A stretch of 64,000 nucleotides of DNA from a virus (lineage: Duplodnaviria > Caudoviricetes), in IMG/VR virus record IMGVR_UViG_3300044767_000023, positions 29,692 to 93,691 of that record. One strand, written 5' to 3'. This document shows positions 61,718-62,675 of the stretch, one piece after another; positions within the stretch are counted from its first letter, which is position 1; the number at the start of each line of letters is the position of its first letter. A program made the translations under genes and the position numbers. A model generated the notes under the pieces. It made no database searches and had not been told where the DNA came from. It worked only from the letters and a program-made list of their open reading frames with translations.

Positions 61718-62522
61718 ATTCCGGGGCCTCGATCATATGCGCATGCGAGCCGCCTTTAGTGTCTGGCCAATGCGACATGATGTAAGGCTTCGGAGGCTTC
61801 TCGCCTTTGTCCAGCTCCCACCACTTGTCGTGCATGTGAGAGAGGAACAACTTGACGGCCCACCGCCGGGCGCGGGCGTCGATCTGCGCCGGAGGCAGCT
61901 TGCCGTCCTTGAGGTGGCCGTAGGCTTCGGTGGACTTGTTGAACTTGGGCAGCAGCTCGGCCGCGCGAGCCGCATTGCCGCCGCTGTCGTTGCGATCGAC
62001 CTCGTACTGCTTGCGCTTGACGTACAGCTTGCCGTAGAAGCATTCGTCGCGGCCAGAGAACTTCATAAACGACTGGCCGATCTTCCAGCATAGAGTTTTG
62101 AGCTCGGCGTTCCACGGCCGCTTCTTTCCTTTCTCCCAGATGCTAGTCGGATCCAGTCCGGCAAAGCGCCAGATGTGTCCAGTAGTCGGGGCCTTGTTGA
62201 TGTTGATGTGGGCAATCAGGCCGGCCGCAATCACCGGACCGATACCGTACTGCCTTCGCATCCACTGACCGATCGGCTTGGCTTCGGAGTACTTATCGAG
62301 CGCGCCCTTGAGCTGGTCCTCAAGGATCGCGTTCTGGTCGTGGAACCACTGCAGCAAGGAATGCGGCTCGGCTCCCATCGCCTTCACTTGATTGCCGCTG
62401 CGCTTGCGGTCTTCTTGGATGATGTAGTAGGCATCGACGAGGAAGCGGGCCTCTTCGTCCGATAGCGTTGCCGCCGCGGCGCGGAGGTCCCGCGTTAATC
62501 TTTCAACGTGGGAATCAGTCAC
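61716..62522 (-). CDS. tasA: Nop-domain RNA-binding protein without nuclease domain (TIGR-associated TasA-like; IS110 C-terminal homolog)
   Basis: Coiled coil then GIGPVIAAGLIA, WRFAGLDP, WNAELK, YGKLY, ARRWAVKLFLSH; no DEDD RuvC or HNH motif; flanked by dual-repeat arrays. Confidence 0.85.
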   Translation of the reverse strand: MTDSHVERLTRDLRAAAATLSDEEARFLVDAYYIIQEDRKRSGNQVKAMGAEPHSLLQWFHDQNAILEDQLKGALDKYSEAKPIGQWMRRQYGIGPVIAAGLIAHININKAPTTGHIWRFAGLDPTSIWEKGKKRPWNAELKTLCWKIGQSFMKFSGRDECFYGKLYVKRKQYEVDRNDSGGNAARAAELLPKFNKSTEAYGHLKDGKLPPAQIDARARRWAVKLFLSHMHDKWWELDKGEKPPKPYIMSHWPDTKGGSHAHMIEAPE

Positions 62523-62526
62523 ATAG

Positions 62527-62675
62527 CTCTCCGGTTTGTTGGTACTCTCTGCACATTTGGATCACTCGCGCGTTCTGGTACGCTTGCCGCGGATGGTTCG
62601 CTTTCCTCACTTGGTACTCACAACGGGCTTGGCTCACTCGGGTTCGTCGGTACTCTCGCTCGTCTTGGTTCGCTT
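62527..62675 (-). repeat. TIGR-like dual-repeat guide-RNA array 2 (4 units of 36 nt)
   Basis: Same alternating repeats at an exact 18-nt half-period; the last unit ends in the RBS of the Tas gene. Confidence 0.9.

Follow-up and report, generated by a model that had tools for sequence, protein, structure and literature searches.

The tasA gene of a soil phage, which codes for TasA, a small DNA-binding protein guided by RNA, shares bases with a guide array at both of its ends: the Shine-Dalgarno (SD) sequence GGAGAG, which is very probably the functional ribosome-binding site (RBS) of tasA, is made up of the last spacer base and the terminal half repeat of the upstream array, and the stop codon supplies the first bases of the downstream array. 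TIGR-Tas systems are very recent and are under development as compact genome and transcription tools. Our full account of the locus, a TIGR-TasA system in which box D of a guide unit serves as SD and through which TasA represses its own translation, is put forward tentatively, with a likelihood a little short of even. If the last guide unit is indeed a translational operator, it would be a natural and portable device coupling effector level to guide loading, and would explain why some arrays sit directly on a start codon; if compaction alone accounts for the layout, the locus is one more ordinary member of a family already known. The sequence analyzed, here called the window, consists of 64,000 nucleotides and represents the last 64 kb of a 93,691-bp soil phage record.

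The TIGR-TasA locus and its transcription unit

The features of the locus all lie on the minus strand and are given in window coordinates.

63808–64000, minus strand: TIGR array 3, partial, of the same repeat family, cut off by the end of the 93.7-kb record
63740–63768, minus strand: sigma-70-like promoter, TTGACT-17-TATATT, from a consensus scan; carries the phage's recurrent TTGACTTA word
63229–63708, minus strand: first gene of the unit, GGACT/AIG2-like gamma-glutamyl cyclotransferase fold protein, 159 aa (PF06094, E 4.6e-23)
62771–63232, minus strand: second gene, DUF4262 protein, 153 aa (PF14081, E 1.6e-15)
62676–62770, minus strand: untranslated leader from the DUF4262 stop to array 2, with a hairpin
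62527–62675, minus strand: TIGR array 2, four 36-nt units, from the repeat reading
62527–62532, minus strand: Shine-Dalgarno sequence GGAGAG: G 62532, which ends spacer B, then GAGAG 62531–62527, the 5' half of an edge repeat (box D)
61716–62522, minus strand: tasA, GTG start, TAA stop, 268 aa, coiled coil and Nop domain, Y...GH dyad
61536–61717, minus strand: TIGR array 1, five units, AACCA start and GAGCG end, followed by the terminator (61522–61498)
61498–61522, minus strand: strong intrinsic terminator, 9-bp GC stem then T7, closing the unit after array 1

The product of tasA is a TasA protein of the dual-repeat TIGR-Tas type, a known family. In a phmmer search of PDB sequences its coiled-coil and Nop region matched TasR (9mty_A, E 1.7e-11) and TasH (E 2.7e-7), and hhalign comparison of a 23-member family profile with the TasH of a Salicola phage (SpTasH) gave a probability of 97.9%. 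An AF2 model of TasA (pLDDT 89.6) had only TasH and TasR as its top PDB folds (TM 0.55–0.73), the IS621 recombinase coming next. The alignment begins at residue 124 of TasR and residue 137 of TasH, with only about 34 residues before the coiled coil of TasA, and a Pfam search detected no HNH or RuvC nuclease domain in the 268-aa protein; this lack of an N-terminal nuclease domain places it in the TasA type. Y289/H296, the catalytic residues with which SpTasH cuts the pre-tigRNA within the edge repeat (PMC13421893; bioRxiv 10.64898/2026.09.09.750476), have their counterparts by alignment in the C-terminal family motif PY-x6-GHxH. The loop that carries the Y/H dyad has a 6-aa insertion here and is modeled by AF2 at pLDDT < 50. 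TasA proteins are RNA-guided transcriptional repressors (bioRxiv 10.64898/2026.09.09.750476). The Pfam search gave just a sub-threshold match to the IS110 domain Transposase_20, and the match to phrog_4285 (E 1.7e-42) carries the PHROGs label 'transposase', a misnomer; with such labels routine annotation will misname TasA genes. A tblastn search of the GenBank phage collection with TasA returned no match.

The three arrays are built from units of the form ARCCA, 8 nt, a GAGAGTACCA-like loop repeat, 8 nt and GAGYG (5+8+10+8+5 = 36 nt), two of the units being 37 nt long. Two short repeats alternate, with two spacers to each unit of approximately 36 nt and with truncated terminal repeats, as in dual-repeat systems, whose repeats are 8–12 nt long. 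Edge and loop repeats both read GAG......CCA, and at the homologous locus L007/L073 both end in CCC, the covariation of boxes that marks a dual-repeat array. The pattern GAGWGYRCCA-N8-GAGYG, with up to two mismatches, matched 15 times in the window compared to 2.3 matches expected, and 14 of the 15 fell inside the three arrays, indicating that the repeats do not arise by chance. Array 2 opens with the full edge repeat AAGCGAACCA (62675–62666), comprises units at 62670–62635, 62634–62599, 62598–62563 and 62562–62527, and closes with the 3'-truncated edge repeat GAGAG, which precedes an ORF and not a terminator. The units of array 1 lie at 61717–61682, 61681–61646, 61645–61609, 61608–61573 and 61572–61536. 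Array 3 has the box-C variants AGCCT and AGCCG in place of AGCCA, a full edge repeat at its end, and a terminator at about 63796–63779; no second tas gene was found in the 93.7-kb record. Three spacers of array 1 are near-duplicates (CTTAGTTC, CTTAGTGC and TTAGTGCA, at 61658–61651, 61585–61578 and 61567–61560 on the minus strand), a similarity that suggests duplication of units within the array, not independent acquisition. A search for self-targets covered both strands of the 93.7 kb, each of 12 units being tried in four spacer arrangements and with up to two mismatches; it gave 2 matches compared to 1–6 in shuffled controls, and one of the two was the array itself. Autoregulation at the DNA level, of the kind exerted by the CRISPR tracr-L, was ruled out, since the 93.7 kb of the phage itself contains no target of its guides.

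The order on the minus strand is promoter, GGACT-like gene, DUF4262 gene, 95-nt leader, four-unit array, tasA, five-unit array and terminator. The site at 63740–63768 was the only promoter-like site that a consensus scan detected in 61300–64000, the leader at 62676–62770 giving none. The TTGACTTA word occurs 8 times in the window compared to 0.78 copies expected, and a word search of the window found no copy between 63761 and 61486. Neither the consensus scan nor the TTGACTTA word gave a promoter belonging to array 2 or tasA. It is likely that the promoter at 63768 starts the unit containing array 2, tasA and array 1; a single transcript extending to the terminator at 61498 would include the two accessory genes, the four-unit array, tasA and the five-unit array, and probably carries both arrays along with tasA, which sits 1.2 kb into the unit. 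Identical or near-identical DNA is present in soil metagenomes of several studies. Contigs from four soil studies are identical in array 2 and the junction wherever they cover them, gaps in cover carrying no meaning. The leader varies by a GG insertion and a 4-nt deletion (62694, 62766) in other soil metagenomes and in the homologous locus L051.

We also noted resemblances among RBSs of this phage and its relatives. The RBS context (C)AAACGGAG recurs on the minus strand at 63722, 61381, 60016, 30581, 30342 and 29648 and precedes several genes downstream of TTGACTTA promoters. The sequence formed by ACAAACCG, with which the spacers of array 2 end, and the GAG after it resembles this context. 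The RBS of the first gene (CGGAGTACCAAAATG) contains GAGTACCA (63718–63711, minus strand), with 8 of 10 bases as in the loop repeat, and the tas RBSs of the homologous loci L088 (AGGAGTACCAaatcATG) and L061 (GGAGAGTACCAaATG) resemble this first-gene RBS. Outside the arrays GAGTACCA has 4 copies compared to about 0.9 expected, an excess that we judged too weak to build on. From its sequence, a lone loop-like repeat at an RBS might represent a Tas half-site.

The start and stop junctions of tasA

The last unit of array 2 (unit 2.4, minus strand) consists of ATCCA (62562–62558), spacer A AATGTGCA (62557–62550), the loop repeat GAGAGTACCA (62549–62540), spacer B ACAAACCG (62539–62532) and the 3' half edge repeat GAGAG (62531–62527), and is followed by the linker CTAT (62526–62523) and the start codon GTG (62522–62520). 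The interval 62520–62562 singled out in the initial annotation of this DNA is exactly unit 2.4 plus linker plus start codon, and the order that it gave for the end of the array (GAGAGTACCA, ACAAACCG, GAGAG, CTAT, GTG), a minus-strand reading, is right to the base. It had also described GGAGAG as the sole SD-like sequence before the GTG, and this was borne out for the 20 nt preceding the start codon, with a spacing of 6 nt from the end of GGAG to GTG.

Translation of tasA from another codon with an independent RBS would render GGAGAG irrelevant, and the initial annotation had named this as an outcome that would count against its reading. An out-of-frame ATG (62524–62522) does lie 4 nt past GGAG, but TGA comes directly after it. 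The GTG is the sole in-frame ATG, GTG or TTG from the preceding stop in that frame down to the conserved N-terminal helix, with none other before residue 48; every homologue conserves residues 5–47, homologue N-termini fall within 1–2 residues of GTG 62522 in the alignment, and the homologous locus L052, whose TasA is 93% identical, keeps the same GTG. Use of a different start is therefore highly improbable. The out-of-frame ATG forms with its TGA a one-codon start-stop (62524–62519, minus strand) that overlaps the GTG of tasA (CT ATG TGA). This start-stop could, from its position, compete for initiating ribosomes; it is missing in L052.

We examined whether RNA structure masks the SD and found none that does so, the leader plus array giving z +0.44 and the last unit plus start z +0.92 relative to shuffles. 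Since the leader RNA does not fold better than its shuffles, any masking of the SD would need the protein. Both types of TIGR repeat have box D at their start and box C at their end, these being read base-specifically by the Nop domains of the Tas dimer, and in the mature tigRNA the box D of the 3' end pairs with the box C of the 5' end (PMC12045711). The SD of tasA coincides with box D of a complete 36-nt unit, so that the motif predicted to be bound by the protein overlaps the RBS of its own gene, as in an autogenous repressor, the box D reading being taken from work on another Tas protein (PMC12045711).

At the other end of the gene the sequence reads GAA TAA CCA, with the stop codon at 61718–61716 and the half repeat AACCA at 61717–61713 (minus strand), and a loop repeat follows 8 nt past AACCA. 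The junction sequence confirms the earlier observation that TAA supplies the AA of the first AACCA of array 1.

The junctions among homologous loci

About 160 homologous loci were compared, drawn from collections of viruses, metagenomes and genomes; their ORFs and junctions were re-derived by script, the junction class of three (L003, L073 and L030) being set by eye; the loci were placed on a quick maximum-likelihood tree (IQ-TREE). Upstream arrays were counted among the 119 distinct loci with enough upstream sequence. An array was present in 28 of these, L018 adding one for a total of about 29, and 91 of the 119 were without one. The layout with the half repeat as SD, in which the terminal 5-nt half repeat lies 4–7 nt from the start codon, was found in the window and in L052, L001, L003, L011 and L007/L073, with variants in L018, L030 and L061. 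On the tree these loci form one clade (the window, L052, L001 and L003) and two separate tips, which corresponds to three changes, two of them forced by well-supported branches. Judged from the sequences compared, the SD within the half repeat is a minority state that occupies at least two positions on the tree.

At least 12 of the approximately 29 upstream-array loci carry the same 5-nt half repeat followed by a linker of 10–25 nt with its own canonical SD (L134, L080, L088, L118, L108, L114, L117, L126, L048 and others). These separate-SD relatives, together with the 91 of 119 loci without an upstream array, indicate that the overlap is not a requirement of the family and may represent compaction without regulation. 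By this explanation arrays fill the space between ORFs, the GAG at the start of a repeat happens to act as an SD, A[AG]CCA following a T happens to give a stop codon, and either TasA loads too slowly or truncated units are poor substrates. Since box D (GAG) is SD-like by nature, its double use can arise without selection for regulation. Tight packing moreover appears general: in L052 (at about 470–700 of that locus, which is without a DUF4262 gene) the upstream array begins at the stop codon of the GGACT-like gene, a non-tas gene. We consider regulation-free compaction, itself somewhat less than an even prospect, to be about as likely as real negative feedback.

Several features of the terminal units are not readily accounted for by compaction. 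All six loci with the layout (four independent lineages) have a G immediately ahead of the terminal half repeat, compared to a frequency of 0.196 in 1179 internal spacers, and all six hold GGAG at 6–9 nt from the start codon while the spacers turn over. In L052 both spacers of the last unit differ from those of the window, and G-GAGAG, the ATCCA edge variant and GTG are kept. In addition, the terminal units at many loci are complete and of mature length (5+8+10+8+5), which suggests, from their sequence, that they are units in use. For TaTIGR, the first unit of the downstream array (tigRNA1) is matured and active (PMC12045711), and on these two grounds it can be argued that boundary units are used. 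On the side of compaction, Faure et al. found that a minimal array had to have full edge repeats to be processed (PMC12045711), and so a truncated terminal repeat may escape cutting.

The stop junction has a wider distribution than the start junction. Among the 66 distinct loci whose first 110 downstream nucleotides include an array, the stop codon overlaps the first A[AG]CC. half repeat in 43–45, and does so in two registers, TAA or TAG plus CCA in about 27 loci and TGA or TAA plus GCCA in about 17. In loci where our simple scorer saw no array the overlap was present in 7 of 55, the chance rate being roughly 7% by our own estimate. The downstream array of L052 reads TAA|AACCA, adjoining the stop without overlapping it. 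The overlap is kept even though the protein tail past the GHxH motif spans from 2 to more than 20 residues; as far as these junction sequences go, it is a hallmark of this TasA family. The same range of tail lengths is what compaction would give, as though the reading frame stayed open up to the point where the first repeat brings in a stop codon, and this neutral reading may suffice for the overlap. Conservation of the overlap among homologues, on which the original proposal leaned, therefore differs between the two ends of the gene, being found at the stop in about two thirds of the downstream-array loci and at the RBS in the closest clade and two further lineages only. Sharing of the stop at any tail length should be useful for annotating tas genes and array boundaries, and it gives a concrete prediction of where the precursor is cut.

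Proposed feedback on tasA and relation to known systems

According to the feedback model, the unstructured precursor would be translated freely early in expression. As TasA accumulates, its dimer would recognize box C and box D of each 36-nt unit and load there, and on unit 2.4 the SD would thereby be buried; if the Y/H dyad moreover cut at the half-repeat boundary (GAGAG|CUAU), a 4-nt leader without an SD would remain. Translation of tasA would then drop once guides load, an autogenous translational repression with an ordinary TasA substrate as its operator. The model is plausible because box D, a sequence read by the Nop domain (PMC12045711), doubles as the SD, and because the Y/H dyad is conserved and the naked leader is unstructured. 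We regard real negative feedback from the array-end RBS as possible, with somewhat less than an even chance: self-repression is a neat regulatory hypothesis, but one held only tentatively given incomplete conservation and a plausible neutral explanation. The general idea behind it has already been voiced in a 2026 preprint (10.64898/2026.09.09.750476).

The opposite effect of processing was also considered. A cut at GAGUG|AUCCA (62563/62562), in the full edge repeat that precedes unit 2.4, could release the tasA mRNA from its long polycistronic precursor, with the TasA-bound 36-nt unit at its 5' end protecting it like a cap against decay that depends on the 5' end, so that expression would rise, not fall, with guide processing. 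Such activation or stabilization would fit a tasA that lies without its own promoter well inside the transcription unit, and the deviant ATCCA/GAGAG pair kept in the last unit of both the window and L052 could mark a unit that is retained, not released. A TasA dimer on box D would, however, cover the SD itself, the TIGR literature examined offers no precedent, and the loci with a separate SD are explained no better; we therefore regard activation as quite improbable.

A more extreme form of the feedback model treats the transcript as a self-consuming precursor, which TasA would cut both 4 nt before the start codon, removing the SD, and between the U and the AA of the stop codon. The cut at the stop would create a non-stop message with tmRNA-tagged products; guide maturation would irreversibly end TasA synthesis and fix the ratio of protein to guide, and the overlap of stop codon and half repeat would be the conserved half of the circuit. 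We consider this form unlikely.

Bacterial ribosomal proteins are a familiar case of autogenous control. Among box C/D-related proteins, archaeal L7Ae represses its own translation through a k-turn in its own 5' leader (PMC5539422, PMC6298567). The likeness to both would lie in the binding of a protein, here one of the box C/D world, to a copy of its usual motif near its own start codon, in a leader that is unstructured until bound. The operators of L7Ae and of ribosomal proteins are mimics, whereas by analogy the part of the operator would be played here by a real substrate in the form of a complete guide unit, whose cleavage could render the repression irreversible. [quoted passage not shown] TnpB, unrelated as a protein, relies on its RuvC site, and omega-RNA overlaps many codons, compared to the stop codon only at the present locus. 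We take the L7Ae k-turn leader (PMC5539422, PMC6298567) and the processing by TnpB of its own mRNA (PMC10278001) to be the closest functional analogues.

The closest known system is dual-repeat TIGR-Tas, TasA subtype (Faure et al. 2025, PMC12045711), and the RNA architecture is nearest to that of SpTIGR from Salicola phage CGphi29, which has 8-nt spacers and the edge repeat AAGCGAGCCA. Dual-repeat TIGR-Tas systems and the present locus have in common a Nop-domain protein, alternating edge and loop repeats that run from box D to CCA, 36-nt units, a 5'-truncated first and a 3'-truncated last edge repeat, a terminator past the downstream array, and a phage origin. They differ in that the truncated last repeat of the upstream array is followed here by the tas start codon 4 nt on and not by a terminator, the repeat thereby becoming the candidate RBS. 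In SpTIGR, by contrast, a hairpin separates the stop codon from the downstream array, which begins about 40 nt on, and GGGAG serves the gene as an SD of its own. Relative to the TIGR literature examined, use of the last-unit box D as an SD and sharing of the stop in about two thirds of loci appear to be new.

Xu et al. (2026 preprint, 10.64898/2026.09.09.750476) describe intragenic tigRNAs, in which guide units likewise overlap tas expression signals; their units lie inside the ORF, mostly in stem-loop systems. That preprint mentions no overlap between stop codon and half repeat, and a word search of it for Shine-Dalgarno and RBS gave no hit. L007/L073 is a case of the intragenic kind: a full edge repeat abuts the ATG, which occupies the position of spacer A, and the array runs on into the ORF. 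At L007–L009/L073 the loop repeat GAGAGCACCC codes for residues 3–5 of an 11-residue N-terminal extension.
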